Origin: an uncultured Actinomycetes bacterium
GTDB lineage: Bacteria; Actinomycetota; Geothermincolia; Geothermincolales; RBG-13-55-18
Assembly: GCA_937128055.1 (NCBI GenBank)
Contig: CAKZMC010000060.1
Coordinates: forward strand, 687-64,686
Length of the DNA stretch: 64,000 bases
Direction of reading: 5' to 3'
Position numbers and translations under genes: made by a program. The notes beneath the pieces were generated by a model. It was not told the origin of the DNA. It did not search any database and saw only the letters and a program-made list of their open reading frames with translations. How positions within the stretch are numbered: the stretch's first letter is position 1; every line of letters starts with the position of its first letter. Positions 5,932 to 57,480 of the stretch are shown piece after piece.

Positions 5932-7026
5932 GTGGGCATGAGGCGCGTTCTTCATATCGTGCGCAAGGATGCGGACCAGTACTTCCGCAACCGCTTCGTG
6001 GTGGTGATATCCGTGCTCTCCACCCTCGTCTTCGCCCTCATCTACAACCTCATGCCTTCCCGGGTGGACGAGACCGTAAAGCTGGGGCTCTACCTGCGGA
6101 CCGAGGAGGGTGGCGGGGAGGCGGCGGGCCCGGAGGCGGTGAGGCTGGCGGAAAGCCTCTCGCAGGCAGGAGAGGCCGCGCAGGGTGCGGAGGGGTTGCA
6201 GCTGGTCTGGGCGCCTTCGCCGGAGGAGCTGCGCGCGTTGGTGGAGGGGGAGGAGGTGAGCGCCGGGATCGCCCTCGACCTCTCCTCCCCGGAGCCGAAG
6301 GTCGACCTCTTCGTCACCTCGCAGGCTCCCGCGGAAATGGTGGGCGCGGCGGAGGCCATCGCGCGCGAGATGGCCTATAGCCTCGTCGGGTATGCACTGC
6401 CCGCCGACCTCGAGGCCACCGTCGTGGGGCCGGACATGGCCGGCCGGCAGGTCCCCATGCGGGACAAGCTGCGCGTGCTGCTCCTCGCCCTGGTCTTCAT
6501 CCTCGAACTCTACGGGCTGGGCAACCTGGTCATGGACGAGATCCAGCACCGCACGGCGGTGGCTCTCCTGGTCACGCCGGTGACCCTGGGGGACTTCGTG
6601 GCCGCCAAAGCCCTCACGGGCGTGGCTATCGCCTTCTCCCAGGGCCTGCTCATGGCCTTTCTCCTGGGGGCCATGTCCCGGGCGAGCTGGGCCGCCATCA
6701 TGGCCCTGCTCTTCATGGGGGCCGCACTGATGGTGGGGGTCGCCTTCATCATGGGGGCGGCAAGCCGCAACTTCGTGCACATGGCGATGATCTCCTTCAT
6801 CCCGGTGATGGTCCTGCTGGTGCCGGGGCTGGTAGTGCTGGACCCGGGCTTTTCCTCTCCCCTCATGAAGGCTATCCCCACCTATTACCTGGTGCGGCCG
6901 CTGGACGGCATCATCAATTACGGGAAAGGGGCGCTTTCATACGCCTCCTGCCTGGCCTACCTGGCGCTCTTCGCCGCGGCCTTCTTCCTGCTGGGGTCCC
7001 TGCTCATGAAGAGGAGGCTGGTATGA
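5932..7026 (+). CDS. ABC-2 family transporter permease
   Basis: 364 aa, N-terminal cytoplasmic stretch then a TM segment, a large loop, then 5 C-terminal TM helices. Follows the ATPase on the same strand. Confidence 0.8.
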   Translation: MGMRRVLHIVRKDADQYFRNRFVVVISVLSTLVFALIYNLMPSRVDETVKLGLYLRTEEGGGEAAGPEAVRLAESLSQAGEAAQGAEGLQLVWAPSPEELRALVEGEEVSAGIALDLSSPEPKVDLFVTSQAPAEMVGAAEAIAREMAYSLVGYALPADLEATVVGPDMAGRQVPMRDKLRVLLLALVFILELYGLGNLVMDEIQHRTAVALLVTPVTLGDFVAAKALTGVAIAFSQGLLMAFLLGAMSRASWAAIMALLFMGAALMVGVAFIMGAASRNFVHMAMISFIPVMVLLVPGLVVLDPGFSSPLMKAIPTYYLVRPLDGIINYGKGALSYASCLAYLALFAAAFFLLGSLLMKRRLV

Positions 7027-8129: not shown

Positions 8130-8612
8130 TCACGGCCCGCCCAGGGCGGCCAGGATGTCTTCGTCCGGCGGGTACTCCGTCTGGATGCTGGCGATGAAGA
8201 TATATTTGATGATCCCCTCCCTGTCGAGGACGAAGGTGGACGGCCTGGCGATGTTGATCGATTCGAAGTTCACCTTGACGTAGACCCCGTAGTCCTTGGA
8301 GACCTGCCGCTTCTCGTCCGCGAGCACGGGGAAGGGGTAGGGATTATCTTCCAGGAATTCCCTGATGGCCTTGCGTTTCTGGGCCAGGATGACCACCGCC
8401 CGCGCGCCGCGCCTCTCCAGTTCGGGATAAAGCTCTTGTATATGACCCATATACTCCCGGCAGTGCGGTCACCAGGTGCCCCGTCCAAAATAGATCATCG
8501 CGGGCCGTCCCAGCAGCGAGGACAGCGCGAACTCCTCGCCGCTCCACGCGTCCGGCAGCCGGAAATCGGGCGCCGTGTCGCCCAACTTGAGGACCGTGCT
8601 CTCCCTGGACAT
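8130..8612 (-). CDS. Prx-like thioredoxin-fold protein (AhpC/TSA, PRX_like2-type), candidate selenoprotein with in-frame UGA at 8469-8471 (UxxC)
   Basis: The track splits it into 8130..8450 and the C-terminal 47 aa of ORF 8469..9575; the two are in frame and separated by one TGA. Joined read: MSRESTVLKLGDTAPDFRLPDAWSGEEFALSSLLGRPAMIYFGRGTW-U-PHCREYMGHIQELYPELERRGARAVVILAQ... The UGA falls where the first Cys of the F-x-R-G-x-W-C-P-x-C motif is expected. Good RBS (GGGAGGTGA) before the ATG at 8610-8612. Confidence 0.6.
8438..8454 (-). promoter_or_regulatory. Candidate bacterial SECIS hairpin (GUAUAU-GGGUC-AUAUAC) 14 nt downstream of the in-frame UGA
   Basis: mRNA reads UGA CCGCACUGCCGGGA GUAUAU GGGUC AUAUAC: a perfect 6-bp stem with a 5-nt loop containing GU, at the spacing bacterial SECIS elements use. 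The loop includes the AUG that the ORF caller took as a start. Confidence 0.45.
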
Positions 8613-8671
8613 CTTCTCACCTCCCGTGGCTTCCAACATTATAACGTTGAAAACTGTTCCGCCCCCCGCTC

Positions 8672-9835
8672 TCAGGCCTGGCGAGGAGGTCGGCCCTCGC
8701 CCAGGACGGCATGCACCTCCGGCATGAGCTCGCTCACCTTTATGGCTTGAGGGCACTTCTCCTCGCACTCGCCGCACTGCGTGCAGGCGGCGGCCCGCTC
8801 CTTCTCCTCGAGGAACCTGTGGTAGCGGAAGCGCGGCGTGAGCTGGTCGTCGTACATGACCAGGCTGTTGTAGAGCGCGAACACCTCCGGGATGTTCACC
8901 CCGCTGGGACAGGGCATGCAGTAGCCGCAGGCGGTGCAGGGGACGGCCGCACGCTCCGCGAATTTGCCGCGCACCTTTTCCAGGAGGGCGAGCTCCTCCG
9001 CGTTCAGGGCATGGGTGGCGGAAAGCTCCGCGGTAAGGAGGTTCTCCTCCAGTTGCTGCATGTCGCTCATGCCGCTGAGCACCACCGAGATCCCGGGTTG
9101 CTCCCAGAGCCAGAGCAGCGCCCACTGCGCGGGAGTGCGCCGCACGGGGAAACCCTCGAAGATGGCGGCGATCTCCCGCGGCGGACGGGCCAGGTTGCCG
9201 CCCAGCAGCGGCTCCATGACCACCACCGGCAGCCCTTTCTCCGCGGCGTATGACAGGCCTCGCGTCCCGGCCTGGTTCTCGGTGTCCATGTAGTTGTACT
9301 GGATCTGGCAGAGGGCCCAGCCTTCGTAGCCGTCCACGATCTCCTTGAAGGTGGCGAAGTCGTCGTGGAAGGAGAAGCCGATGCCGCCGATGCGGCCGTC
9401 TTTCACCGCGGCCTCCGCCCTGGCGAGCAGCCCGAGCTCCCCGATGGCCTCCCATCTCCTCGCGTTCAGGCCGTGGAAGAGGTAGTACTCGATGTGGTCC
9501 GTCCGCAGTCTGCGCATCTGCTCGGCGAGGAAGCGGTCGAAGTCCTCGCCCCTCTCCACCATCCATACCGGGCACTTGGTGGCAAGCCTCACCTGCTCCC
9601 GGTACCCTCCGCGCAGGAACTCGCCCAGCAGCGCCTCGCTCTTACCGTTGTGGTAGGTGTAGGCGCTGTCCAGGTAGTTGACGCCGCTCTCGATGGCGTG
9701 GTGGACCATCGCCTCCGCTTCCTCCACGTTGACGTTCTCGCTGATGGGAATGGCATCCAAGGTGGGGAAGCGCATGCATCCGAAACCGAGGATGGAGACC
9801 TCCCAGCCGCTCCTCCCGAATTCACGGTACTGCAT
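8672..9835 (-). CDS. Aldo/keto reductase with C-terminal 2x[4Fe-4S] ferredoxin-like domain
   Basis: MQYREFGRSGWEVSILGFGCMRF...YLDSAYTYHNGKSE (AKR N-terminal motifs). C-terminal Cys clusters CTACGYCMPCPSG and CTQCGECEEKCPQ. ATG at 9833-9835 preceded by GGAGGG. Confidence 0.85.
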   Translation of the reverse strand: MQYREFGRSGWEVSILGFGCMRFPTLDAIPISENVNVEEAEAMVHHAIESGVNYLDSAYTYHNGKSEALLGEFLRGGYREQVRLATKCPVWMVERGEDFDRFLAEQMRRLRTDHIEYYLFHGLNARRWEAIGELGLLARAEAAVKDGRIGGIGFSFHDDFATFKEIVDGYEGWALCQIQYNYMDTENQAGTRGLSYAAEKGLPVVVMEPLLGGNLARPPREIAAIFEGFPVRRTPAQWALLWLWEQPGISVVLSGMSDMQQLEENLLTAELSATHALNAEELALLEKVRGKFAERAAVPCTACGYCMPCPSGVNIPEVFALYNSLVMYDDQLTPRFRYHRFLEEKERAAACTQCGECEEKCPQAIKVSELMPEVHAVLGEGRPPRQA

Positions 9836-10019
9836 GGCTTGCCCTCCGTTCCGTGACGTTTTTCCCGCGCCTGCCAGCGGAATCGCGAGCACACCCCGTG
9901 GGCGAGGTCGCGGGACGCCATAAAACATTATAGCGGCAACACCGCGCAGGAGGAGCCAAGACGCAGGGCCGGGTGGGCCTGCGTCTCCTGCCCGGCGCGG
10001 CGAACGGGCGCCCTCGCCG

Positions 10020-11924
10020 CTAGATGCCCAGCGCTTTCCGCCTCTCCTCGATGTGCGCCAGCATGTTCTCCGCAGCTTCCACGGGGTCCTTCTCCAGGTG
10101 GAGCTGCCCGCCGGTTAGATCGCGGCACCCCTGCGTGAGGAGTTCCACGAGGTTGGGCGCGCCGGTGACGGTGGGCACCGGGTTGACGTAGGTGTAGAGG
10201 CCTAGGGCGAGAGCGAAGATGGCGTCGATGGTGGCCTTCTGCTCCATGTATTCCGGCGCGGCGGCGACCACGGGAAGGTCTGGAATGGGAATTCCTCCCA
10301 GGGCGCCGGAGACCGCCGCCAGGAGGTCGGCGACGCGGCCGGTGTCCGTGCAGGTCCCGTAGCTCAGCACGGGGGGCACCCCCAGCTTTTCGCACAGGCC
10401 TCTGAGGCCGGGCCCCGCCAGTTCCGCCGCCTGCGGAGCGCACAGGCCGGATACCTGCATGGCCGCGTTGCCGCATCCCATGGAGAGGATGATGATGTCC
10501 CGCGCGATGAGCTCCCTGGCCACCGCCACGCTGTGCGCGTCCTGGCCGCTGTCCCGCAGCGAGGTGCAGGAGACCAGGCCGGCGACCCCTCTTATGCTGC
10601 CGTCCTTGAGGGCCGCGAGGAGGGGATCGAGGCTCCCGCCCAGCGCCTCCAGGATGCTCTCGGTGGAGAAGCCGACCACCGCTTCCCTCAGCGGCTGGCC
10701 GGTGATGGGCTCCACGGCGCGGCGCCGCTCCGCGAAGTTGGCGATGGCCATCTCCAGGAGGCGCGCCGCCTGCTCCTCCGCCTTCTCGGGGTGGTAGTCA
10801 AGCCGCTCCTCCACTCCCTCGAAGGCCACCAGGTCGCTCACCGGGATGAGCTTGAAGCGGTAGCGCTCGGCGTAGATGGGGTCGACGGGCATGGAACAGT
10901 TCATGTCGGCTGCGAAGAGGTCCACGCAGCCCGAGGAGAGCACCGCCTCCTGCATGATCCAGTTGCCGGTGAAGCCGTGGAAAGCGTCGTCCATCTGCCA
11001 GCGCTGGATCATCTCCTGCCCGGTCTCGATGCAGGCGATGACGCGCAGCCCCTTCGCCCCGGCCGCCCGCGCCTTTTCCTGCCACGCGGGCTTGCGCGCC
11101 AGCTGCACCATGGCGAAGCCCAGGAAGGGCTCGTGCCCGTTGGGCAGCGCGTTCACGTAGTCGGGATCGAGCACCCCCAGGTCCACGCGCATGGGGTGGG
11201 GGCGCGGGATGCCGAAGAGCACGTCCTGGCAGTACTCGTTGACCACCTGGCTCTGGTAGGCCATGGCGATGCCCATGCGCATGGCCTTGAGCGCCAGGCT
11301 GGCGTAGTGGCCGTCGACATTGGTGAGGCAGGAGCTGGTGACGCGCATCATCTCACCGTAGATGCCTCCCGGGAAGATACCCAGTTTTTTCCATATCTCT
11401 CTGCGCTCCGGGGTGGCCAGGGCCTCCACGATGAGGCTGGGCTCGTCCGCCTTGCGGTTGAAGTCGGCCTCGCAGAGATCGCACAGGCGCAAGGCCACCT
11501 CGGCATCGCTTCCCGAGACATCCACCCCGAGGCGCGAGGCGAAGTCACGGAGCTTGCCGGGTTCGCTCATGGCGAAGGGCGACTTTCCCCGTGCCGTGGC
11601 CCGCAGGGTCTTCAGGGTCTGCTCCGTGTGGTAATGGTAGGTGGAAGCGCCCATGACGTTACGCAGGGCCATCATGCGCATGGCCATGCCGTCGGCGGTG
11701 ATGCCGCACACGCCGCGCTTGTCCTTGGCGGCGTCGGCGCGGCAGGGACCGTTGGAACACAGGTCGCAGCGCACCCCGCCCATGCAGAAGGGGCACCTCT
11801 TGTCGGGGTCGTCGCCCAGGCCCTGCGCCTGGTAGCGGTCCCAGATGTTGGTGATGCCCGCTTCCCTGATGCGCCGGTATGCCCTGCGCACCGACTCGTG
11901 ATGGGAGATACGCGCCTCTTCCAT
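10020..11924 (-). CDS. cooS: Ni-dependent carbon monoxide dehydrogenase catalytic subunit, CooS family
   Basis: N-terminal B/D-cluster motif CPFCMGGVRCDLCSNGPCR matches CooS C-G-F-G-x2-G-x-C-C-x2-C-x2-GPCR spacing. About 635 aa with Cys/His ligand-rich C-terminal half. Start placed at the third ATG (MEEARISHH), which has AAGGAGG 7 nt upstream. Confidence 0.75.
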   Translation of the reverse strand: MEEARISHHESVRRAYRRIREAGITNIWDRYQAQGLGDDPDKRCPFCMGGVRCDLCSNGPCRADAAKDKRGVCGITADGMAMRMMALRNVMGASTYHYHTEQTLKTLRATARGKSPFAMSEPGKLRDFASRLGVDVSGSDAEVALRLCDLCEADFNRKADEPSLIVEALATPERREIWKKLGIFPGGIYGEMMRVTSSCLTNVDGHYASLALKAMRMGIAMAYQSQVVNEYCQDVLFGIPRPHPMRVDLGVLDPDYVNALPNGHEPFLGFAMVQLARKPAWQEKARAAGAKGLRVIACIETGQEMIQRWQMDDAFHGFTGNWIMQEAVLSSGCVDLFAADMNCSMPVDPIYAERYRFKLIPVSDLVAFEGVEERLDYHPEKAEEQAARLLEMAIANFAERRRAVEPITGQPLREAVVGFSTESILEALGGSLDPLLAALKDGSIRGVAGLVSCTSLRDSGQDAHSVAVARELIARDIIILSMGCGNAAMQVSGLCAPQAAELAGPGLRGLCEKLGVPPVLSYGTCTDTGRVADLLAAVSGALGGIPIPDLPVVAAAPEYMEQKATIDAIFALALGLYTYVNPVPTVTGAPNLVELLTQGCRDLTGGQLHLEKDPVEAAENMLAHIEERRKALGI

Positions 11925-12050
11925 GATCATCCCCTCCTTCACTGTCCGTTAGGGTTTAATCTTTCCCCCTCCGCCCCTTATCGCAAACAACGGGCAAGGC
12001 CGGGGCCTGACCCCGTTCATGTTTGACCTGACGGGGTCCGGACACGGCGC

Positions 12051-12389
12051 TCACAGGATCCTGGTCTCCTCGCGGGGCCTGGGCGCTTTGACCACCAGCA
12101 CGCGCAGGTCTTTTTCCCCGCCGTTCATCCAGCGGTGGGGGATGTGCGCGGGGCTCTCCACCAGGTTGTCCCTGCCGACCCTGCGCCTCTCTTCCCCTAT
12201 CTCCACCGTCCCTTCCCCTTCCAGGACGTAGAAGAAGACGTCCACCGGGGTGACATGGCGTTTGAGGCTCTCGCCGGGGCGGAGCAGGATGTGCACCGCC
12301 TGCGCATGTTCGTTGTCGTATATCCTGCTGGCATGCACGCCATGCGGGTTGGGTGCCGGCGCCGCCTTGAGGACATCCACCACCTTCAT
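12051..12389 (-). CDS. Cupin-domain protein
   Basis: MKVVDVLKAAPAPNPHGVHASRIYDNEHAQAVHILLRPGESLKRHVTPVDVFFYVLEGEGTVEIGE: cupin two-motif pattern. Start at the internal ATG; the upstream extension MIYVIDIYITLTYIVAI lies in the AT-rich promoter region. Confidence 0.7.
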   Translation of the reverse strand: MKVVDVLKAAPAPNPHGVHASRIYDNEHAQAVHILLRPGESLKRHVTPVDVFFYVLEGEGTVEIGEERRRVGRDNLVESPAHIPHRWMNGGEKDLRVLVVKAPRPREETRIL

Positions 12390-12525
12390 CTCCACGCCTC
12401 CCTTTTCAAGACTGCCCCGAATGGCCACAATATATGTTAGAGTAATATATATGTCAATAACATATATCATATGTTAGAATATTTGAGAGGCAAGGTTACG
12501 GGGCCGGGAAGCGGGGGAGAGGAAT
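12390..12525. promoter_or_regulatory. AT-rich divergent promoter/operator region between cupin and PadR genes, with repeated ATATGTTAGA and ATATAT motifs
   Basis: Sharp GC drop. Sequence ATATATGTTAGAGTAATATATATGTCAATAACATATATCATATGTTAGAATAT holds two copies of (C)ATATGTTAGA flanking TATATA boxes. Typical layout for PadR autoregulation. Confidence 0.35.
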
Positions 12526-12915
12526 ATGGACAAGAGGAAGAACGGCGGCCGCGACCTCCTGACTGACGTGGAGACCTACATGCGCGAGGGGCCGGGAAAG
12601 CGCTTCCTCGAGCCGCGCTTGCTCTTCCTCCTCAGAAAGGGCCGCGCCCACGGGTACGAGCTGATTCAGCGCATGGGGGAGGTCCCCCTGCCGGGGCCAT
12701 TGCCCGACACGGGAGCCGTCTACCGCGCGCTGCGCCGGATGGAGCAGGAGGGGCTGGTCGCCTCGCGCTGGGCGGAGACGCAGAGGGGGCCGCGGAGGAA
12801 GGTCTACCGCATCACGGCCGAGGGAAGGAAGAGACTCGCCGTGTGGGCGGAGGCCATGCGGGGAAGGGTGGCGATGCTGCAGCGTTTTCTCGCGCTCTAC
12901 GACGAGGAGAGATGA
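12526..12915 (+). CDS. PadR-family transcriptional regulator
   Basis: RLLFLLRKGRAHGYELIQRM...GAVYRALRRMEQEGLV...RKVYRITAEGRKRL: the PadR winged-HTH signature. Confidence 0.85.
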   Translation: MDKRKNGGRDLLTDVETYMREGPGKRFLEPRLLFLLRKGRAHGYELIQRMGEVPLPGPLPDTGAVYRALRRMEQEGLVASRWAETQRGPRRKVYRITAEGRKRLAVWAEAMRGRVAMLQRFLALYDEER

Positions 12916-24681: not shown

Positions 24682-24775
24682 CGGGGGGCCGGCGTAGATG
24701 GCGCGGCCGCGCGTCGTGAGCGGGCGGTTTTCCCGGGGCGGAAAGCAGCCCGCTGGGTGAAGGGAGGTGCGGGGA

Positions 24776-25246
24776 ATGGAGGACTGGAGAACGGGCCAGG
24801 AGATCCTGGTCATGGAGGGCAGGATCAAGGTCCCCTACCGCTGGGCGGCGGGAGAGACGGGGACCCGCTACCTGCAGGCCCTGCGGGACGAGATGAGGTT
24901 CCTGGGCACCAGGTGCCCGCAATGCGGCGTCGTCTACCACCCGCCGCGCCGCCACTGCCCCGACTGCGGCACGGAATGCGAGTGGAGGGAGCTTGCGAGC
25001 CGGGGGGTGCTCGTCACCTACACGGTGGTGCGGCGACACCATTCCCAGCTAACGCCCCTCGACATCCCCTTCGCCTACGGGATCATCCGGCTGGAGGGCG
25101 CGGACACCGGTTTCCTGCACCTGCTGCACGAGTTCGCGGAGGGCGAGCTGCGCGCGGGCATGGAGGTGGAGGCGGTCTTCGCCACGGAGAGGGAGGGGAG
25201 CGTACGCGACGTGCGCTACTTCCGGCCCCTGCGGGAGGCGGTTTGA
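24776..25246 (+). CDS. DUF35 / OB-fold protein with Zn-ribbon (thiolase partner; BbsA/ChsH2-like)
   Basis: CPQCGVVYHPPRRHCPDCG Zn-ribbon followed by an OB-fold region. ATG 9 nt after GGGAGG. Confidence 0.8.
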   Translation: MEDWRTGQEILVMEGRIKVPYRWAAGETGTRYLQALRDEMRFLGTRCPQCGVVYHPPRRHCPDCGTECEWRELASRGVLVTYTVVRRHHSQLTPLDIPFAYGIIRLEGADTGFLHLLHEFAEGELRAGMEVEAVFATEREGSVRDVRYFRPLREAV

Positions 25247-26392
25247 ATGGAGCCGGTGGCGGTGGTGGGCGTGGGGATGACCCGCATGGAGCGTGAGAGG
25301 CGCCCGGACGGGTACGCCGACCTGGTTTACGAGGCGGTGTGCCTGGCGCTCGCGGACGCGGGGATGACCATCGACCAGGTGGACAACGTGGTAACGATCT
25401 CCAACGACTTCTTCGACGGCAGGACCATCTCCTCCATGGCCGTGCAGGACGCCTGCGGGTCCTACGACAAGAACATATCCACCGTGGAGGGGGACGGCGC
25501 CTTCGGGGCGTTTTACGGCCTCATGCGCATCCTCTCCGGGAGCTTCGGCACAACCTTGGTCTGCGCCCATCACAAGGGGTCGGAGAGCGACATGTCGCTC
25601 ATCACCAACGCCATGTTCGACCCGGTCTACGAGCGTTCCCTGGGCATAGAGGCGGTGACCTCGGCGGCCCTGCAGGCGCGCGCCTACATGGACAGGTACG
25701 GCGTGAGCGAGGAGGATTGCGCACTGGTCTCCGTGAAGAACCGCGCCAACGCCCTCCGCAACCCGCTGGCCCAGCTACCCCTGGAGCTGACGGTGGAGGA
25801 GGTCATGTCCTCTCCTTACCTCGCCGAGCCCCTCAAGGTCCTGGACTGCTGTCCCGTCTCCGACGGCGCCGCGGCGCTCGTCCTGGCATCGGCCGAGAGG
25901 GCGCGCAAGGCGGCCGGAAAGCCGGTGTGGGTGCGGGGCGTGGCGCACTGCTGCGACGCCTACCACCTGGGCGACCGCGACCTGAGCGACGTACGCGCCC
26001 TGCAGCGGGCGGCGGCGAAGGCCTATTCCATGGCCGGCATCGACGATCCCGCACGCGAGATCGACGTCGTCGAGCTGTACGATGCCTTCTCCTACATGGA
26101 GCTCATGTGGCTGGAGGGCCTCGGATTCTGCGGGCGGGGCGAGGCCGGGAGGCTCACCGCCGGCGGGGCCACCTCCCTGGAGGGGAACACGCCGGTAAAC
26201 GCATCGGGGGGCTGCCTGGCGGGGAACCCGGTGCTGGTTGCGGGGCTGAACCGCATCATCGAGTGCGCCTTGCAGGTGCGGGGAGAGGCCGGCGAGCACC
26301 AGGTGGAAGGGGTGCGCACGGCGGTGGCGCAGGGGATCAACGGCCCCTGCGGCCAATCGCATTGCGTCTGGGTGCTGGGAGGTGAGCGGTGA
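25247..26392 (+). CDS. Thiolase-like protein (SCP-x / nonspecific lipid-transfer protein family)
   Basis: MEPVAVVGVGMTRMERER...NASGG near the C-terminus. SCP-x thiolase architecture, paired with DUF35. Confidence 0.85.
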   Translation: MEPVAVVGVGMTRMERERRPDGYADLVYEAVCLALADAGMTIDQVDNVVTISNDFFDGRTISSMAVQDACGSYDKNISTVEGDGAFGAFYGLMRILSGSFGTTLVCAHHKGSESDMSLITNAMFDPVYERSLGIEAVTSAALQARAYMDRYGVSEEDCALVSVKNRANALRNPLAQLPLELTVEEVMSSPYLAEPLKVLDCCPVSDGAAALVLASAERARKAAGKPVWVRGVAHCCDAYHLGDRDLSDVRALQRAAAKAYSMAGIDDPAREIDVVELYDAFSYMELMWLEGLGFCGRGEAGRLTAGGATSLEGNTPVNASGGCLAGNPVLVAGLNRIIECALQVRGEAGEHQVEGVRTAVAQGINGPCGQSHCVWVLGGER

Positions 26393-38238: not shown

Positions 38239-38615
38239 CTTCGGTCGCCCCCCGCCGTCTTTTCCGCTTCGCTTTCAGGTTTTCCGGTAGCGCGACCCGC
38301 GGGCTCTTTTCCCGCGGCCGCTCTGGTCTCTTGCTTTAATCGACCTCTCATCGGCGCGCCTTAACCGTAAGCGGGGAAGCGGGTTTGGCCCGGGGCCTTG
38401 CTGGCCTCCGGCTTCATGGCGGCTCTCAGGGGCCCGCGCTCTCGGCGCTCGCCGGCCGCGGCAGGAGAGCCGCCCCTGGCAAGAGAGGGCGCTCCGTCAC
38501 GCCCCGGCCAGGGGGGAGAATCCCCGCCGTCTTCGCGGGGAACGGGTTCCTGCAGGGAGCAAAACGGGTGGATGCTAAAATAGAAGCGTATCCGTCCACA
38601 GGGAGGAGAGGAAGT

Positions 38616-40979
38616 ATGGAACCGTCGAGCGATACCGCCGCATGCGGCGTGCGCTTCCTGCGCATAAAGGAAGCCCTTCTGTCCACGCCGGTGCATCTCT
38701 GCCCCGAGAGGGCGCTCCTCGTCACGCAGTACTTCAAAAAGCACGACGACCCCTCGGAGCCGATGCCGGTGCGACAGGCAAAGGCCTTGCGCCACATCCT
38801 CGCCAACAAGTCGGTGCATATCTATCCGCACGAGCTCATCGTGGGCAACGTGGGTTCCTACCGCATCTCGGCCATCACGCAGCCGGAGCTGGCCGGCGTC
38901 TTCATGAGCGAGGACCTCCTCTGGATCGAGCGCAGAAAGACCACTCCGCTGCGCATATCCTGGCCCGACCGCATGAGGCTGCTCTTCGGCGTTATCCCCT
39001 ACTGGCTCACGCGGAACATGAATTTCCGCGCCTTCCGGGACAAGCGGCACCTCGCGCGCTACGTGCGTGAACAGTTGCGGCCCGCCTACTACCTTATCAA
39101 CGAGGCAGGAGGCATCGGCCACTTCCTACCCAACTACGAGAGGATGCTCAGGGAGGGCATCGAGGGATACCTGGCAGGCATGGAGGGGAAGGAGGGGGAA
39201 TTATACCGCGCCGCGCGCATCGCCTGCGAGGGCCTGGAAATTTATGCCGGGCGCCTCGCCGAGGAGGCCGATAGGATGGCGGGAAGCGAGGCGGACCCGG
39301 GGCGCCGGGAGGAGCTGCGCGAGATCGCTCGCATCTGCCGCAAGGTACCCCGGCAGCCGGCGCAAACCCTCCACGAGGCGCTGCAGTCGCTGTGGCTGAC
39401 CCATCTGGCCGTCAACCTGGAGAGCCTCAATTCGGCCATATCCTTCGGGCGCGTCGACCAGTACCTCTATCCCTATTACCGCCAGGACGTGGAGGAAGGG
39501 CGGCTCGACGCGGCGAGGGCCAAGGAGCTGCTGCTCTCCTTCAGCGCCAAGGCGACGGAGCACGTCTTCCTGCTCTCGGAGAGGATCAGCCAGTATCACG
39601 GCGGCTACCTGGTGGTGCAGGCGGCCATCGTGGGCGGCACCGACCGTGAGGGGAAGGACGCCGTCAACGAGCTCACCTACCTTTTCCTGGAAATCATGGA
39701 GGAAGCGGGGTTGCGCGACCCCAACTACCAGGCTCGCGTCCACGCGGGCTCCCCGCCCGAGTACCTCCTCCGCGTGGCGGATGTTGCCCGCAAGGGGAAG
39801 GGCGTCCCCGCCGTGTTCAACGACGAGGCGGCGGTGGCCTCCCTGGTGCATCACGGCTACCCCCTGCGGGAGGCGCGCAACTACGCCACGGTGGGGTGCG
39901 TGGAGCTGGCCCTCCCCGGGATCAGCTTCCTCTCCACCGACGCCGCGCTTTTCAACCTGCCCCTCTGCCTGGAGCTGGCGCTCAACGAGGGCAGGCGCTT
40001 CGGCCGCCGGCGCAGGGTGGGAGCTCCCACTCCCGGCCCCGGTAGCTTCCGGGACATGGAGGACATCATCGAGGCCTTTCGCCGCCAGGTGGATGCCATG
40101 GTGGACCGCATGGTCCGTGATTTCCAGGTAGTGGAAAGAGGGAACCGTGATTATCACCCCACGCCGCTCTCCTCCATGCTGGTGGAAGGCTGCCTGGAAG
40201 CGGGCAGGGACCTTACCGAGGGCGGGGCCAGGTACAACGCGAGCGGCATACAGGGGGTAGGAGTAGCAGATGTGGCCGACTCCCTGGCCGCGCTGCACGA
40301 GGTGGTTTTCCGCCGGGGTAAGTACACCGTGGAGGAGATTGTCGCGGCCCTGCGGGAAGACTTCGCCGGACAGCGGCGCTTGCAGGCGGAGCTGCTCAAA
40401 GCCCCGAAATACGGCAACGACCACCCGTTGCCGGACGGGTACGCCGACCTGGTGGTGCGCATATTCCACGACTCTCTCGCGCGCCACAGGAACACGAGGA
40501 GCGGGCCTTACGTCCCCGGTTTCTATTCCGTCACATGCCATGTGGCCTTCGGTAAGGAGGTGGGGGCCCTTCCCAGCGGGCGCCGCGCCGGCGAGACGCT
40601 GGCGGCCAGCCTGGGCCCGGCGAACGGGTGCGACCGCCACGGCCCCACCGCCGTACTGAACTCCGTGGCGCGCGTAGACTCGCGCCTCATGCCCAACGGG
40701 TGCGCCCTGAACCTGAGCTTCTCCCCCCATGAGGTGCGTGGAGGGGAAGGGGCGGAGAAGCTGGCGGCCCTCATGCGCAGCTTTTTTGACTGCGGCGGGA
40801 TGCAGGTGCAGTGCAACGTGCTCGACCCCGAGGTGCTGGAGGACGCGCGCCTTCATCCCGGAAAGTACCCGGGACTGGTGGTGAGGGTAGCAGGGTACTG
40901 TGCCTACTTCGACGACCTTCCGGATGCCGCCAAGGGGGAGATCATCTCCCGCTGGAGGCGAGGCGGAAGCGAATGGTAA
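38616..40979 (+). CDS. Glycyl radical enzyme (pyruvate formate-lyase family), substrate unknown
   Basis: Glycyl radical motif RVAGYCAYFDDL 28 aa from the C-terminus. Thiyl-radical Cys loop ATVGCVELALPG. 788 aa. ATG preceded by GGGAGGAGAGGAAG. Confidence 0.9.
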   Translation: MEPSSDTAACGVRFLRIKEALLSTPVHLCPERALLVTQYFKKHDDPSEPMPVRQAKALRHILANKSVHIYPHELIVGNVGSYRISAITQPELAGVFMSEDLLWIERRKTTPLRISWPDRMRLLFGVIPYWLTRNMNFRAFRDKRHLARYVREQLRPAYYLINEAGGIGHFLPNYERMLREGIEGYLAGMEGKEGELYRAARIACEGLEIYAGRLAEEADRMAGSEADPGRREELREIARICRKVPRQPAQTLHEALQSLWLTHLAVNLESLNSAISFGRVDQYLYPYYRQDVEEGRLDAARAKELLLSFSAKATEHVFLLSERISQYHGGYLVVQAAIVGGTDREGKDAVNELTYLFLEIMEEAGLRDPNYQARVHAGSPPEYLLRVADVARKGKGVPAVFNDEAAVASLVHHGYPLREARNYATVGCVELALPGISFLSTDAALFNLPLCLELALNEGRRFGRRRRVGAPTPGPGSFRDMEDIIEAFRRQVDAMVDRMVRDFQVVERGNRDYHPTPLSSMLVEGCLEAGRDLTEGGARYNASGIQGVGVADVADSLAALHEVVFRRGKYTVEEIVAALREDFAGQRRLQAELLKAPKYGNDHPLPDGYADLVVRIFHDSLARHRNTRSGPYVPGFYSVTCHVAFGKEVGALPSGRRAGETLAASLGPANGCDRHGPTAVLNSVARVDSRLMPNGCALNLSFSPHEVRGGEGAEKLAALMRSFFDCGGMQVQCNVLDPEVLEDARLHPGKYPGLVVRVAGYCAYFDDLPDAAKGEIISRWRRGGSEW

Positions 40980-42756: not shown

Positions 42757-42873
42757 GCATTGACAGGTGAATGAAGGCTCTCCGAGTCCTGTTTCCTAAG
42801 GCCTCGGCTATGGAACCGGACCGATAGGGTGCAGGTGGAAACGCCGGCGCCTCCCGTGTTTGGAAAGGAGAGG
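42757..42873 (+). promoter_or_regulatory. Candidate molybdenum/tungsten-cofactor (Moco-type) riboswitch in the leader of the MobB-like-tupABC-moeA operon
   Basis: About 117-nt leader with CUCCGAG...AAGGCCUCGG helix, GGAAACGCC, and CCUCCC positioned to pair with the RBS GGAAAGGAGAGGG. These elements resemble the Moco RNA motif, and the genomic context (Mo/W transport and cofactor genes) fits. Confidence 0.3.
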
Positions 42874-43758
42874 GCATTGAGCGATAAGGCGCGCCCGTCC
42901 CCTCCGGACGGGTTTTTTACGGATGGCCACGAGGGAGACAATCAGCAGCGCCCCGCGCAGCCCCCGGGCTCGCTCGGGAACGTCATCTCCACCACCAAGA
43001 TCATCACCGTCTCCGGGGCCAGCAAAGACGTTGGAAAGAGTTCCCTGGCCGCCTTTCTCGCTTCCCGCTGCCGCGCCTGCGCGGGCGTCAAGGTCTCCGT
43101 GCACGACCGGAGGCCGCCGGGAGAGGTGGTCGTGGAGGAGGGCGAGGTGCCGGCGCGGCCCGAAACGGATACCGGGCGCCTGCGCCTGGCGGGCGCCTTC
43201 CCCGTGCTCTGGGTGAGGAGCACGCAGGAGGGCCTGGAGGGGGACCTCGCGGCGGCGCTATCGCGCGTCGACGCGCCGGTGGTCATCGTGGAGGGCAACA
43301 GCGTCCTACGCTACCTGGAACCGCATTACGCCGTTTTCGTCATGCCCTCCACCTTCGCTGATTTCAAGCCCTCGGCCTTCGCTGCCTTGCGAAAGGCCCA
43401 CACGGTGGTGGTGAACGGGGAGGAGGGTATCTCCGGTGGAGCAGCACTGGAGCTCGAAAGGAAAATAAAGGAAATCAATCCCGGGGCCAAGCTGGTCGTG
43501 GTCCCGGAGCTGGGAAGAGAGGCGGCCTGGGAGGTGGTGCTCTCCCGGGCGGCGGGAAGGATAGGAGGTGAGCTCATGTCCGCCGGGGTCGAGGAGAGGG
43601 TCCTGCAGGCGGTGAGGGAGAGGGCGGAGGAAGGGCGCATACCCTGCGCCGTCGCCCTGAAGCTGGCGGAGGAGCTGGAGGTGCCGCCCCTCGAGGTGGG
43701 GAAGGCGGCCAACGCCCTCAACGTGAAGATCGTCAAATGCTCGCTGGGATGTTTCTGA
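42874..43758 (+). CDS. MobB-like P-loop protein with C-terminal domain of unknown function
   Basis: KIITVSGASKDVGKSSLAAFLASR (degenerate MobB Walker A), then a further domain ending KIVKCSLGCF. TTG start after GGAAAGGAGAGG; start uncertain. Overlaps the tupA start. Confidence 0.55.
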   Translation, partial: ALSDKARPSPPDGFFTDGHEGDNQQRPAQPPGSLGNVISTTKIITVSGASKDVGKSSLAAFLASRCRACAGVKVSVHDRRPPGEVVVEEGEVPARPETDTGRLRLAGAFPVLWVRSTQEGLEGDLAAALSRVDAPVVIVEGNSVLRYLEPHYAVFVMPSTFADFKPSAFAALRKAHTVVVNGEEGISGGAALELERKIKEINPGAKLVVVPELGREAAWEVVLSRAAGRIGGELMSAGVEERVLQAVRERAEEGRIPCAVALKLAEELEVPPLEVGKAANALNVKIVKCSLGCF

Positions 43759-44606
43759 CAAAGGAAAGCCGGCGAGCGGGCAGGGCGGTGGCGCTGCTCG
43801 CCCTCTTGCTGCCACTGACGTTGCTTGCTGGATGCGGCGGCGTGAGAGAGGGGGAGGTGGGGAAGAGGGAGCTCATCCTGGCCACCACCACCAGCACCCA
43901 GGACTCGGGCCTGCTGGACGAGTGGATTCCCATGTTCGAGAAGGCATACCCCTACTCCGTGAAGGTGATCGCGGTGGGGAGCGGGCAGGCCATGGAGATG
44001 GGCCGCAACGGGGAATGCGACGTCATGTTGGTGCACAGCCCCGCTGCTGAGGAGGAGATGGTTGCCCAGGGCTATGCCGTCGGCCGCGAGGCGGTCATGC
44101 ACAACGACTTTGTCATCGTGGGGCCTGCAGCCGACCCGGCCAGGATAAGGGGGAAGACATCCGCGAAGGAGGCGTTTGCCGCCGTCGCCTCCTCCGGGTC
44201 GAAGTTCGTCTCCCGTGGGGATGATTCAGGCACGCACGCCAGGGAGCTCGCCGTCTGGAAGGCGGCCGGGATCGCCCCTCAGGGGGACTGGTACGTGGAG
44301 AGCGGCAGGGGCATGGGAGACACCCTGCGCATCGCGTCGGAGGAAAGAGCGTATACCCTGAGCGACCGGGGCACCTACCTGGGCATGAAGAGCCAGCTGG
44401 AGCTGGAGGTCCTTGTCGAGGGGGATACGGCGCTCTTCAACACATACCACGTCATGGTGGTTAACCCGGAGAGACACCCCGACGCGAACAGCGAGGGCGC
44501 GCGGGCGTTCGCCGCTTTCGTGACCGGCAGGGAGGCCCAGGAGTTCCTCGAGGTTTTCGGCCTGGACAGATACGGCGAGCCCCTGTTCTTTCCCGATGCT
44601 TTATGA
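43737..44606 (+). CDS. tupA: Tungstate ABC transporter substrate-binding lipoprotein TupA
   Basis: Lipobox LLAGC. TupA anion-binding signature ILATTTSTQDSGLLDEW. Confidence 0.85.
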   Translation: MLAGMFLTKESRRAGRAVALLALLLPLTLLAGCGGVREGEVGKRELILATTTSTQDSGLLDEWIPMFEKAYPYSVKVIAVGSGQAMEMGRNGECDVMLVHSPAAEEEMVAQGYAVGREAVMHNDFVIVGPAADPARIRGKTSAKEAFAAVASSGSKFVSRGDDSGTHARELAVWKAAGIAPQGDWYVESGRGMGDTLRIASEERAYTLSDRGTYLGMKSQLELEVLVEGDTALFNTYHVMVVNPERHPDANSEGARAFAAFVTGREAQEFLEVFGLDRYGEPLFFPDAL

Positions 44607-46571: not shown

Positions 46572-47456
46572 GTGAAAATCCATATGTGGATGTTGGAGAA
46601 GAACATGGAGAACCGCGAGGGAAGCCACGCGAGGGCCGCAGGGAAGGGCAAGGCCCTTGCCTGGGTCGCCGGCCTTCTCGTCCCGGGCCTGCTTTCGGCG
46701 GCCTTGCTGGCGGGTTGCGGGGGGAAGGGCGGGGGCACCCTGGTCTTCGCGGCCACGCGGGACCTCGACGGTTTCGGCGTCCTGGAGGAGTGGGTGGAGG
46801 ACTTCGAGCGGCGATCCGCCTGCGACGTGGAACTGGTGACGGCCGTGGACCGGGATCTCGTGGCGATGGCCAGGCACGGGGAGTGCGACGTGGTGCTCTC
46901 CCACCTCTCCGAGGAGACGGGCATGCTGGAAAGATATGGCTATGTGGAGGACAGGCAGGAAGTGATGCGCGACACCTACCTGCTGGTGGGCCCGGCGGAC
47001 GACCCGGCGAGAGCCGGGGAGGCGGGCTCTTTCCCGGAAGCCTTCACCAGGATAGCGGAGGCGAAACGGCCTTTCGTCATGCGCGTGGACGGGTCCGGCG
47101 CCGCCTTGGTGGCGGATTCCCTCTGGGAGGCGACGGGGGTGGAGGATTTCGCGGGATGGATGCGGACGGAGAAGGGAAGCATGAGGGAGACCCTGCAGCG
47201 CGCCTCCCGGGAGGGAGCCTACACCTTTTGCGACCGCAGCACGTACGAGAGCATGCGGGAGGAGCTGATGCTGGAGGTCGTCTACGAGGGCGGCGAGCCG
47301 CTGGTCAATTCCTACTTCGTGATGATGGTGAGCACCTTGCCCTACCCGGATACCAACGCCGCGGGTGCCCGGGAATTCATCGGCTACCTGCTTTCGGAGA
47401 AGGCGAGGGAGCGTCTCGTGCTGGGCTCCTGGGCGGTGCCGCCGGAGGAGCAATAG
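46572..47456 (+). CDS. TupA-like periplasmic binding lipoprotein with altered anion-binding motif (paralogue)
   Basis: Lipobox LLAGC. Same fold as TupA (GECDV.L.H, GDWYVESG-like blocks), but the TTTSTQDSG motif is replaced by AATRDLDGFG. Confidence 0.75.
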   Translation: MKIHMWMLEKNMENREGSHARAAGKGKALAWVAGLLVPGLLSAALLAGCGGKGGGTLVFAATRDLDGFGVLEEWVEDFERRSACDVELVTAVDRDLVAMARHGECDVVLSHLSEETGMLERYGYVEDRQEVMRDTYLLVGPADDPARAGEAGSFPEAFTRIAEAKRPFVMRVDGSGAALVADSLWEATGVEDFAGWMRTEKGSMRETLQRASREGAYTFCDRSTYESMREELMLEVVYEGGEPLVNSYFVMMVSTLPYPDTNAAGAREFIGYLLSEKARERLVLGSWAVPPEEQ

Positions 47457-47551
47457 CGGCGCCCGCGCCGGGCGTGGCGCGGACGCTGCGGGGGAAGCGG
47501 CTCCTGGGGCGCGCGGCAGGGGAGGTGCGAGCAGCGCGAGGAGGGGTGAAG

Positions 47552-48757
47552 ATGTTGAGCGTGGAGGAGGCGCGCGAAGCGATTCTCGCGTCCATCGCCG
47601 TCCTGCCGGAAGCGGAGGTGGGCCTCCTGGACGCCTTGGGGATGACGCTGGCGGAGGACGTGGTGGCGAGGCATGACATCCCCCCCTTCGACAACTCGGC
47701 CATGGACGGCTACGCTTTGCGCGCCGCGGATATTGCCGGCGCGTCGCCGCAGCGGCCGGTTGAGCTCGCCGTGCTGGGGGACCTGCCCGCCGGCTATGCG
47801 CCGGAGGTGGCCGTCGAGCGGGGGCAGGCCCTGCGCATAATGACCGGGGCGCCCCTGCCGCGGGGCGCCGACGCCGTGGTGCCGGTGGAGGCCACGCGCA
47901 GCGAGGGCGGCCTCGTTCATGTCATGGAAGAAGTTGCCAGGGGAACGCATGTGCGCCGGGCGGGAGAGGACGTGCGTGCGGGGGATACGGTGATGGAGGC
48001 GGGAAGGGCCGTCGCTGCGGCGGAACTGGGAATGCTTGCCAGCCTGGGATACGCGAAGGTGCGCTGCTTCCGGAGCGCCGTGGCAGGGATCATCTCCACG
48101 GGTGACGAGCTGGTAGGCGTGGAGGAGGAACTGCCGCCGGGGAAGATCCGGGACTCCAACAGCTACACCCTGTACGGGATGGTGCAGGAGGCGGGAGGTG
48201 TTCCGCTGCGCCTGGGCACGGTGCGGGATGATGCGACCCTCCTGGAACGCACCATCCTGGAGAACCTGGATCGCGTGGACCTCTTCGTCACCAGCGGCGG
48301 CGTGTCGGTGGGGGATTACGACATGGTCAAGGACGTCCTGGGGAAGCTGGGGGAGATGAACTTCTGGAAGGTGGCCATGCGCCCCGGAAAGCCCCAGGCT
48401 TTCGGGCACATCCGGGGGAAGCCGCTCTTCGGCTTGCCGGGAAACCCGGTATCGGTGATGGTCTCCTTCGAGCAGTTCGTACGCCCCGCGCTCCTCAAGA
48501 TGATGGGGAGGCGCGACCTTTTCCGGCCCACGGTGACCGCCGTCCTCGACGCTCCTCTGGGCCGCAGGGAGGGCCGGACGGAGTTCATCCGCGTGATCGC
48601 CGAGTGGCGGGAGGGCCGCTACCACGCCCGCCCCACGGGCCCCCAGGGCAGCGGCATCCTCAGCTCCATGGTGGCGTGCAGCGCGCTCGCCGTCCTTCCC
48701 GAGGAGGTGGGGCGCCTGGAGCCGGGAAGCGAGGTCACCCTGCAGCTCCTCCGCTGA
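47552..48757 (+). CDS. moeA: Molybdopterin molybdo-/tungsto-transferase MoeA
   Basis: PPFDNSAMDGYA, GDEL, GGVSVGDYD and LPGNPVS motifs of MoeA/gephyrin E-domain. ATG after GAGGAGGGG. Confidence 0.85.
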   Translation: MLSVEEAREAILASIAVLPEAEVGLLDALGMTLAEDVVARHDIPPFDNSAMDGYALRAADIAGASPQRPVELAVLGDLPAGYAPEVAVERGQALRIMTGAPLPRGADAVVPVEATRSEGGLVHVMEEVARGTHVRRAGEDVRAGDTVMEAGRAVAAAELGMLASLGYAKVRCFRSAVAGIISTGDELVGVEEELPPGKIRDSNSYTLYGMVQEAGGVPLRLGTVRDDATLLERTILENLDRVDLFVTSGGVSVGDYDMVKDVLGKLGEMNFWKVAMRPGKPQAFGHIRGKPLFGLPGNPVSVMVSFEQFVRPALLKMMGRRDLFRPTVTAVLDAPLGRREGRTEFIRVIAEWREGRYHARPTGPQGSGILSSMVACSALAVLPEEVGRLEPGSEVTLQLLR

Positions 48758-48811
48758 GCGGGCAGGGCACGAGAGGCCCGCCGCGGGGGCCTCTCGCGGC
48801 GCCCGCGCGCC

Positions 48812-50335
48812 TCACGGGACCTCCGCCGCGAAGATGGGCGGCATGGCGAGATGTACGATGGAAAAGCCGTTTCCCAGGATTTCCCCGGCCATGCTCCAGG
48901 CCTGCTCCAGCGAGCCCGCGTACTCGAAACCCAGGCGCTCCACCACCTCGCGGCTCTTTGCCCCCACCACGATCACCCGGCTCAGGTGCTCGAGCGCAGG
49001 GGCTCCCCAGTACCAGACGTAGAAGGGGTGCACCCCGTGGTAGGAGTGGTCTTCCCGGTAAGCGTGGATGAATTCCCCGCGTCTGGCGAAATCCTCCTCG
49101 AAGCGCGCCTCCATCTCCCGTGCATCCCGGGTCTGGGGGAGCACCCGCTCGAAGAACTCGATGTAGGGAAGGTGATGGCGCTGGTGGAAACCGGGCAGGA
49201 AGGGCTGCATGAGAACCAGCACCCCTCCCTTGCGCACCACCGGCCGCCCGAGGTGCATGTTGAAGACGTATCCCAGCGCCGCGTTCATGGCCAGCAGGGG
49301 GTTCATGCGCGAGAAGGCGGCGTAGGGGCAGATGTTGGGCAAGGCCAGGAAGAGGGCGTCCGCCTGCTCGTCCACCCGCACGTTCTGCTGCCGGAACAGT
49401 GCCTGGAGGGTCTCGGGGTGCACCGCGTCGGGGTTCCCGGCATGCACGGCGATGGGCGAGTAAGCGGCGCGCAGCAGGGAGGAGAAAGCGCTCTTCGCCG
49501 CCTGGGGGAAAGGGCGCGAGACGCGGAAGGGAAGGGGCACCTTCTTCCGCGAGAGGGATAGGTAGCGGTCGAGGGGGCCGGGCCAGACGCGGTTGTTGAG
49601 CACCGTCTCCAGGCTCAGCATGCGGGCGTGGCGGGCGAGGTGCCTTCCCTGCTCCCGCAGGATGTCGTGGAAGCGGCTGCGGGGGTCCATGACCGAGCCG
49701 CCGCTGAGCACGGAGGGGTTGTGATGGGCGCGTATGGACCGGTAGGTCCCCAGGCCCACGAGGTACGATTTCCAGCCCCCGTTCATGCTGGTCCAGTTGA
49801 CGTTGACGTAGACGGTGAGGTCCGATTCCAGCAGCCTGCGGTTGACCTCCACCGGGTATCCATTGGCAGTATTTCCCAGATTCACGTTTCCCGCCGGGTC
49901 TTCGGCGTCGTGGTTGGCGATGCGGTCGGGCCCCATCACCATCCACACCCTCTTCCCCAGCAGGTGCCGGAGTTCCCGTTCCGTCCACTTGCGGTGCAGG
50001 CCCACGGCGCAGACCAGGTTCACGTTCTCCCTCCGCACGCCCTGCGAGAAGAGCTCTTCCAGCACCACCTCCACGGCCAGGCCACGGGGATCCCTGGGCA
50101 CGGGGGGCAGGGGCAGGCAGGGATCGTCGAAGGCGATGGTCACCCGTGAGCGCGGGTTGACCAGCTCGCGCAAGGGAGGGGAGCCCAGAGGCCGGCCGAG
50201 GGCTTCCCTGACCGCTCCCTGGAAATCGGATAAGGCCGGAAGGCAGGAGGGAGCCTCGATGACCCGGGTGCGCTCCGGGAGCTCCACCTGCACGAGGTCG
50301 TCCCCGCAAAAGACCAGCCTGCGCATATCGCTCAC
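48812..50335 (-). CDS. LarA-like (lactate racemase family, DUF2088) protein
   Basis: 507 aa with LarA N-terminal domain features. The alternative-frame ORF 48735..50360 is a Gly/Arg/Pro-rich artefact. Confidence 0.65.
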   Translation of the reverse strand: MSDMRRLVFCGDDLVQVELPERTRVIEAPSCLPALSDFQGAVREALGRPLGSPPLRELVNPRSRVTIAFDDPCLPLPPVPRDPRGLAVEVVLEELFSQGVRRENVNLVCAVGLHRKWTERELRHLLGKRVWMVMGPDRIANHDAEDPAGNVNLGNTANGYPVEVNRRLLESDLTVYVNVNWTSMNGGWKSYLVGLGTYRSIRAHHNPSVLSGGSVMDPRSRFHDILREQGRHLARHARMLSLETVLNNRVWPGPLDRYLSLSRKKVPLPFRVSRPFPQAAKSAFSSLLRAAYSPIAVHAGNPDAVHPETLQALFRQQNVRVDEQADALFLALPNICPYAAFSRMNPLLAMNAALGYVFNMHLGRPVVRKGGVLVLMQPFLPGFHQRHHLPYIEFFERVLPQTRDAREMEARFEEDFARRGEFIHAYREDHSYHGVHPFYVWYWGAPALEHLSRVIVVGAKSREVVERLGFEYAGSLEQAWSMAGEILGNGFSIVHLAMPPIFAAEVP

Positions 50336-50417
50336 CCCCGTCTATCTCGCCGCCCGGCACCTTTCGCCCGTATTCGCGTTCCGGGATGAAGAAAGTCCCT
50401 CGAGCGCGAGGAACGTC

Positions 50418-55874: not shown

Positions 55875-55980
55875 ACATCCCCTCTAAAAGATATTTATCG
55901 TCAGCCCCCGGTGCTTACATTAGGAGGCTTGCCTGCGAACACATTCCCAGGCGCGCGCCACGATAGGCTACAATAGCATT

Positions 55981-56616: not shown

Positions 56617-56739
56617 GTTTACGGGAACGGAGGGGGGCGCCCACGTATCCTGGTCGGACATCCGGGAAGGCGGGCAGGGAAAGCGGTTATCGCGCCCGGC
56701 GCGCCCGTGGCGGGAAGCGGAAGGGCCCGGGGACGGGGC

Positions 56740-57375: not shown

Positions 57376-57480
57376 GCGGCGGCCCGGTTTTCGTGCTGGA
57401 TAGGCAGCGGACGCGGGAACGTGCGTCATGCGAGCTCCGGTGAGGTCGTTGACGAGGAAGGGAAGGCCGGGGGCGGAAGG

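Follow-up and report, generated by a model that had tools for sequence, protein, structure and literature searches.

A TGA-interrupted peroxiredoxin-fold gene of an uncultured Actinomycetota bacterium is probably a UxxC selenoprotein gene with its own recoding hairpin

The 64,000-nt stretch of contig CAKZMC010000060.1 analysed here in full (the window) comes from an uncultured bacterium of the actinobacterial class Geothermincolia, and this work concerns a gene on its minus strand, at 8130–8612, that is interrupted by a TGA codon and is a candidate selenoprotein gene. From the ATG at 8612–8610 the frame runs through 47 codons, meets a lone TGA (codon 48, 8471–8469), continues for 112 codons, and ends at the stop codon 8132–8130, as the translation shows. 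With the TGA counted as sense, the whole gene, delimited by translation, Pfam and orthologue alignment, has 160 sense codons and a stop codon. Its translation, MSRESTVLKLGDTAPDFRLPDAWSGEEFALSSLLGRPAMIYFGRGTW*PHCREYMGHIQ...DEDILAALGGP* (asterisks, TGA and stop codon), begins with MSRESTV and holds the TGA within the motif YFGRGTW*PHC, at the N-terminal position of a CxxC-type motif. Codon 51 (TGC, 8460–8462) supplies the partner (resolving) cysteine and is invariant in 31 of 31 aligned homologues. A ribosome-binding site, GGGAGGTG, can be read at 8618–8625 of the same strand, ending 5 nt before the ATG; 7 nt separate its Shine-Dalgarno core GGAGG (8624–8620) from the start codon. A preliminary description of this DNA, made from the letters alone, had claimed a good ribosome-binding site and start for the 47-residue upstream piece and had joined two open reading frames (ORFs), 8130–8450 and the tail of 8469–9575, as being in frame and split by a single TGA. 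Both ORFs are present in the ORF list, and the start region is as described. That description had also called the gene mis-split; in NCBI, JGI, ENA and Logan data it is indeed on record as two proteins of 47 and 106 amino acids.

Orthologues were collected by a scan of species-representative genomes and a metagenome scan. After removal of duplicates, 23 distinct sequences with TGA at codon 48 (Sec-type, for selenocysteine) and 14 with a cysteine codon (Cys-type) remained, and a full-length alignment spans both groups. The species-representative scan gave 14 full-length relatives, five with TGA and nine with TGC or TGT. The loci L001–L005 are from Actinomycetota metagenome-assembled genomes (MAGs), including that of Candidatus (Ca.) Solincola daggyaiensis, and have TGA in the codon-48 column (TW*PHCREYM); the nine Cys carriers, with the motif TWCPTCR, are Ca. 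Geothermincola secundus, Bipolaricaulota, and others. In the complete set the column is TGA in all 23 Sec-type orthologues (independent Actinomycetota MAGs and metagenomes, 57–85% amino acid identity) and TGC or TGT in all 14 Cys-type orthologues (Bipolaricaulota, others, and Ca. Geothermincola secundus). This is the classic Sec/Cys pairing. It also agrees with the earlier expectation of Cys or Sec in the UGA column, the 14 Cys-type orthologues reading TWCPTCR, and full-length Cys orthologues sought in relatives exist, among them P0001/L006 at 66% identity. In the protein collection, about 25 clusters are full-length and Cys-type, and about 37 clusters of 89–123 residues cover only the C-terminal 53–66% of the query; the latter are truncated gene calls.

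Purifying selection acts on both halves of the gene. Over 253 pairs of Sec forms, the ratio of non-synonymous to synonymous differences (pN/pS) is 0.36 for codons 2–47 and 0.35 for the C-terminal part, and the 23 Sec-type orthologues contain no frameshifts or further stops. Synonymous differences (pS) amount to 0.36 in codons +1 to +11 after the UGA of the Sec forms compared to 0.53–0.55 elsewhere in the gene; Cys-type sequences vary most in these very codons (pS 0.61). Fixed codons of the Sec forms include TAT at +6 (23/23), CAT at +9 (22/23), and ATA at +10 (23/23). In the window's Pfam-supported genes TAT, CAT, ATA, and GGT account for only 15%, 25%, 20%, and 8% of their synonymous families, respectively, and the joint probability of this set of rare codons under the window codon usage is ~6e-4.

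The transcript can form a hairpin, GUAUAUG-GGU-CAUAUAC, at 8438–8454 of the minus strand (nt 18–34 from the U of UGA), inside codons 53–59 (E-Y-M-G-H-I-Q). It begins after a 14-nt spacer from the UGA and is a putative apical hairpin of a bacterial selenocysteine insertion sequence (SECIS). The 6-bp hairpin with a 5-nt loop that had been pointed out earlier at this distance is thus present, and its bases also allow a 7-bp stem with a 3-nt loop. Folded alone, it has a free energy of –5.2 kcal/mol (z = –3.5; 1 of 200 shuffles is as good). Among the 1349 TGA trinucleotides of the window, 0.44% are followed in the same zone by a perfectly paired hairpin with 7 or more bp and a loop G, and 1.6% by one with 6 or more bp. 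Judged from the window sequence alone, the hairpin is moderately unusual; the comparative data put it beyond chance. The seven pairs of GUAUAUG-NNN-CAUAUAC are formed in 23 of 23 Sec-type sequences, 14 nt past the UGA, and six of them never vary. The remaining pair is G-C instead of A-U in L030, a compensatory change that combines a Met55 to Val replacement with a synonymous CAT to CAC change. None of the Cys-type orthologues contains the hairpin. By the evidence of the alignment, it tracks the UGA, occurring with every TGA form and without every Cys form.

One pair of sequences may document the loss of the element. The Sec-type locus L035 has a divergent motif at 1641–1700 (PSCRKYMVHI, that is, U-P-S-C-R-K-Y-M) and keeps the hairpin intact despite the different surrounding amino acids. 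Its closest Cys form, L006 from Ca. Geothermincola secundus, is 72.5% identical and holds at 6141–6200 a decayed remnant of the hairpin, GTATATGGCCCATCTGC, which folds at only –1.7 kcal/mol. The poor folding of this remnant suggests that Sec was recently replaced by Cys and that the SECIS then decayed.

The consensus model of the bacterial SECIS calls for a loop of 3–9 nt, an upper stem of 4–16 bp, a G in one of the first two loop positions with the loop pattern N1-G-[G/U]-N-N2, a distance of 16–37 nt from the UGA to the apical loop, and a minimum free energy that does not exceed –7.5 kcal/mol (PMC13188914). In 23 of 23 sequences the stem and loop (7 bp with 3 nt, or 6 bp with 5 nt) lie within these ranges, and all of them carry a G as the first loop nucleotide (loops G-GGU-C, G-GUU-C, and G-GUC-C, with G25 invariant). 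The distance from UGA to loop is 21 nt (positions 4–24), within the range of the model.

With Cys placed at codon 48, the joined 160-residue sequence gives an end-to-end match to Pfam AhpC-TSA (PF00578; profile positions 2–124 of 124, E = 8e-32, 110.3 bits with a cut-off of 26), in line with the AhpC-TSA protein claimed in the preliminary description. It also matches Redoxin (E = 2e-25). For the PRX_like2 (cd02970) assignment, the Pfam model AhpC-TSA_2 scores 26.2 bits with a cut-off of 27. Sequence matches in PDB are BCP/PrxQ peroxiredoxins and ResA-type oxidoreductases (E ~4e-12). In a ResA chain (3c71), Sec48 is matched by the leading Cys of the WCPHC active site; in the alignment with distant BCP-type proteins it falls on the Thr of the peroxiredoxin (Prx) TxxC motif. 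Cys51 falls on the peroxidatic Cys of BCP-type peroxiredoxins, and the active-site Arg123 is nearly invariant in the family alignment. The fold was examined on an AlphaFold model of P0001, the 66%-identical Cys orthologue (pLDDT, the predicted local confidence, 89.5; pTM, the predicted template-modelling score, 0.87). In this model the Sec-equivalent Cys55 stands directly before helix 56–74, and the best structural neighbours are BCP/PrxQ proteins, with Sulfolobus Bcp4 (3hjp) at template-modelling (TM) scores of 0.85/0.91. No NCBIfam model reaches its cut-off (ResA, 62.3 versus 170; DsbE, 27.7 versus 123), and the best selenoprotein model there, SelL_rel_redox, scores 44.6 bits with a cut-off of 120. 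Nor does the protein look like a canonical Prx or PrxU: Sec or Cys occupies the Thr column, PrxU scores 26.4 versus 270, and thiol peroxidase (PRK09437, BCP) 51 versus 140. The translation has no N-terminal signal sequence, anchor, or hydrophobic segment, and the domain starts at about residue 10; the gene product is therefore probably cytoplasmic.

Several observations weigh against a recoded UGA at this locus. The conserved 7-bp AU-rich hairpin, at –5.2 kcal/mol (–7.0 in L030), is weaker than the consensus threshold. A 52-nt stretch of the window reaches –11.2 kcal/mol, but via a non-conserved lower stem, and no conserved lower helix was found in the 63-nt alignment. The 81-nt region as a whole folds like shuffled sequence (z = +0.4). 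Rfam returned no SECIS match, either at gathering thresholds over the whole window or in a permissive E-value search of 8350–8550. Covariation consists of one event, and 23 of 500 shuffles match the observed score. Further, selA, selB, selD, and the gene for tRNA-Sec are absent from the 64-kb window and from 276 kb of related loci, and no other in-frame-UGA gene with coding signal on both sides occurs in the window or the related loci. The SECIS proposed in the preliminary description agrees with the consensus in its loop, stem, loop G, and spacing, and the hairpin alone falls short in its energy. With a moderate single-sequence signal and a surrounding region that folds no better than shuffled sequence, the case rests on the comparative data. 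On balance, we estimate at roughly 90% the probability that 8612–8130 is one gene for a 160-residue peroxiredoxin-fold selenoprotein with the active site Sec48-Pro-His-Cys51, its UGA being recoded via the SECIS hairpin. The sole Rfam match in the permissive search, Guanidine-II, has E = 7.9, which is chance level, and was rejected.

If so, the UGA at codon 48 would be recoded as selenocysteine during translation. The hairpin 14 nt downstream would act as the bacterial SECIS and be bound by SelB-GTP-Sec-tRNA(Sec), and this complex, competing with release factor 2, would bring Sec to the ribosome. Sec48 would then cap helix alpha-1 at its N-terminal end, where thioredoxin-fold enzymes of the CxxC type carry their nucleophilic Cys. 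It may attack an oxidised substrate (a disulfide, possibly a peroxide) and subsequently form a selenenylsulfide with Cys51, to be re-reduced by a thioredoxin-like donor. The likeliest chemistry would be that of a cytoplasmic selenol/thiol oxidoreductase whose cycle passes through a selenenylsulfide between Sec48 and Cys51. The protein may also act as a peroxidase, in view of its Prx-type Arg and fold.

TGA ends 15 of the 22 Pfam-supported genes in the window and is therefore a usual stop there, indicating the standard genetic code. ARAGORN detected no tRNA of any kind in the window and no tRNA-Sec in the 24 related loci. No sel genes were seen by Pfam among the ~40 window ORFs scanned, and phmmer searches of all window and related-locus ORFs with approximate sequences of E. 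coli SelA, SelB, and SelD gave no matches. Sec decoding is documented in Actinobacteria (PMC1794560; PMC13449736), which makes Sec machinery in the source organism a reasonable inference. Our literature search found no paper tying Geothermincolia or Solincola to selenocysteine.

Two other plus-strand runs of same-frame ORFs split by single TGA codons were considered and rejected as recoding candidates, each ORF being an independent, complete gene. At 24761–26392 a ChsH2-like OB-fold protein is followed by a thiolase, and at 55924–57969 Sua5/YrdC is followed by a low-molecular-weight phosphatase and then RpiB. On the minus strand, a LarA homologue at 48815–50341 (NPN-dependent hydroxyacid isomerase family NF052592, 526 bits with a cut-off of 740) ends in TGA, after which a 476-codon frame stays open in the same frame (47384–48811), with an atypical composition (G+C content at first codon positions, GC1, of 0.85).

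The data were also weighed against explanations of the TGA that do not involve selenium. A nonsense-mutated pseudogene, in which a Cys codon (TGC or TGT) has turned into TGA and the gene is decaying, would need a single base change (TGY to TGA); gene callers do take the TGA as a stop, and the window holds no Sec machinery. Against this, 23 distinct orthologues, the most divergent at 57% identity, share the TGA and are free of frameshifts and additional stops, with pN/pS of ~0.35 on both sides of the codon, so that both pieces have been maintained as coding sequence and a pseudogene is excluded on this ground. The hairpin, conserved with every TGA form and missing from every Cys form, speaks against decay as well. 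An assembly artefact common to all of them is countered by the origin of the sequences in NCBI, ENA, and JGI assemblies of different samples. The conservation data effectively refute this explanation, and we give it next to no credence. Somewhat less remote, if still highly improbable, is that the locus makes two products, with a stop at the UGA yielding a 47-residue peptide and re-initiation at the AUG of codon 55 (8450) yielding a 106-residue fragment, the conserved sequence being the start region of the latter. A GGGAG does lie just upstream of AUG55 in the window, and this AUG is kept in 22 of 23 orthologues, L030 having GUG, also a start codon. However, the spacing from GGAG to AUG is only 3 nt, AUG55 lies within the hairpin stem, and the GGAG is not conserved (CGCGAG and CGTGAG; CGAAAG in L035), whereas the hairpin is. 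The 106-residue piece would have neither the first beta-strands nor the two redox residues of the fold. In every case the 47-codon piece runs in frame straight into the TGA, the Cys-type orthologues each form one polypeptide, and the two pieces were nowhere seen as separately conserved genes, the outcome that the preliminary description had named as fatal to a single gene.

Read-through of the UGA without selenium, such as by near-cognate insertion of Trp or Cys or by some other stimulated read-through, with the hairpin as a generic stimulator or a selenium- or redox-dependent regulatory pause site, is the rival that we take most seriously, and it too appears quite unlikely. UGA-C is a leaky termination context, and this context is invariant here (TGACC); no Sec machinery was seen in the window or the related loci, and the hairpin is weaker than a consensus SECIS. 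Yet the recoded codon stands precisely where a CxxC motif has its catalytic Cys, a pattern that marks Sec and not generic read-through; the loop and the spacing from the UGA fit the SelB-type consensus (PMC13188914), and Actinobacteria include documented Sec decoders (PMC1794560; PMC13449736). Translation of the UGA as selenocysteine is accordingly the reading that we retain. The observation made in the preliminary description is thereby confirmed and its interpretation supported, and those of its proposed checks that were carried out turned out in its favour.

A subfamily termed 'Prx-like thiol:disulfide oxidoreductase' is defined by PF00578 together with a UxxC or UxxU motif (PMC9312934; PMC13188914) and its members from Geobacter, Syntrophus, and Desulfotalea have been recognised since 2004 (PMC1794560). 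Its representative is WP_010940744.1 of Geobacter sulfurreducens (Kryukov & Gladyshev 2004, as tabulated in PMC13188914 and PMC9312934). The gene described here combines a PF00578 match with the UxxC motif W-U-P-H-C, in which C51 is invariant, and on these sequence features it is assigned to this known selenoprotein family. The preliminary description had rightly considered the family not to be new, for reviews treat it as an established predicted selenoprotein family. An AhpC-TSA domain, Sec as the first residue of UxxC, the existence of Cys homologues, and an in-ORF SECIS after the UGA are common to both. The differences are in the host, an uncultured Actinomycetota lineage (relatives of Ca. 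Solincola) instead of Deltaproteobacteria, and in the local motif GRGTW-U-PHC, this comparison being with the published description of the family.

With BCP/PrxQ proteins (Sulfolobus solfataricus Bcp4, 3hjp; Aeropyrum pernix PrxQ, 2cx3) the gene product shares the fold, the placement of Cys51 on the peroxidatic Cys, and R123. It differs in that the Thr of PxxxTxxC is replaced by Sec or Cys, giving a thioredoxin-like CxxC, and in NCBIfam Prx equivalog scores that lie far under the cut-offs. A W-C-P-x-C type active site and the same fold connect it to ResA/TlpA/DsbE, from which it departs by having no signal or anchor and by scoring under the family cut-offs. For the hairpin, a known reference is the SECIS of E. 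coli fdhF, whose minimal SelB-binding hairpin has 17 nt and an apical GGUC loop, at nt 22–25 by our numbering of the published sequence. The element in the window is likewise a 17-nt in-ORF apical hairpin with a loop of the G-G-U-C type shortly after the UGA. Its loop, however, is at nt 24–28, one codon further from the UGA, and its stem is a perfect AU-rich 7 bp with no bulged U and no conserved lower helix. Several carriers of the gene are hot-spring MAGs, and in a thermophile-associated lineage the weakness of an AU-rich 17-nt hairpin of –5.2 kcal/mol comes as a surprise.

A gap of 59 nt separates the gene from its upstream neighbour on the minus strand, 8672–9928, whose product joins an aldo/keto-reductase domain to a 4Fe-4S dicluster domain (AKR-4Fe4S; Pfam Aldo_ket_red and Fer4_9). 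This neighbour is also found upstream of the Sec-type gene in L002, L019, L020, and L027, and the two genes are probably co-transcribed. Two genes upstream, at 10020–11942 of the minus strand, is cooS for the catalytic subunit of an anaerobic Ni-CO dehydrogenase (NCBIfam TIGR01702, 702 bits with a cut-off of 478). This adjacency was seen only in the same-species contigs L016 and L017. A conserved cooS neighbourhood was thus rejected as a general feature, the AKR-4Fe4S gene being the only neighbour that recurs, and only in some loci; because of this limited distribution, a functional tie of the selenoprotein to CO oxidation is speculative. A cupin gene (12051–12389, minus strand) lies upstream of cooS and a divergently transcribed PadR regulator gene (12487–12915, plus strand) beyond it, with a strong sigma-70-like promoter site, TTGACA-17-TATATT, at 12457–12429. 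A bolder proposal can be made for the system as a whole. The family SECIS, an unusually minimal 17-nt AU-rich hairpin, sub-threshold, with no conserved lower helix and nucleotide-invariant across a hot-spring and subsurface Actinomycetota lineage, might reflect lineage-specific, sequence-specific recognition by SelB; and, in this organism, the selenoprotein may end a cooS / AKR-4Fe4S / Prx-like module coupling CO oxidation to peroxide or disulfide reduction. Taken jointly, these two ideas are unlikely.

Elsewhere in the window, a Moco riboswitch (RF01055, 79 bits, E = 1.5e-17) at 42768–42884 of the plus strand precedes a PBP_like_2 periplasmic binding protein gene (43572–44603), probably in an operon for the uptake of molybdate or tungstate. 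The plus strand also encodes, at 38340–40976, a glycyl-radical enzyme of the PFL2/glycerol-dehydratase type with PFL-like and Gly_radical domains, for which TIGR01774 scores 667.7, narrowly short of its cut-off of 678.2. On the minus strand, an ORF of 489 codons at 1123–2592 has a strong coding signal (G+C content at third codon positions, GC3, of 0.91), a hydrophobic signal-like N-terminus, and no Pfam or NCBIfam match, and 53196–55883 encodes an 896-residue protein composed mostly of HEAT/PBS-lyase repeats.

The gene adds neither a new mechanism nor a new selenoprotein family; it is a further member of a known family, in an uncultured Actinomycetota lineage. Its reconstruction corrects a systematic annotation error, by which the gene has been cut into calls of 47 and 106 amino acids and which extends to the truncated-homologue clusters. 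The clean series of Sec and Cys orthologues, in which one Cys form still bears a decaying remnant of the SECIS, should be useful for studies of Sec-to-Cys replacement. Finally, the finding indicates that this uncultured, CO- and acetogenesis-associated Actinomycetota lineage, relatives of Ca. Solincola, may decode selenocysteine.

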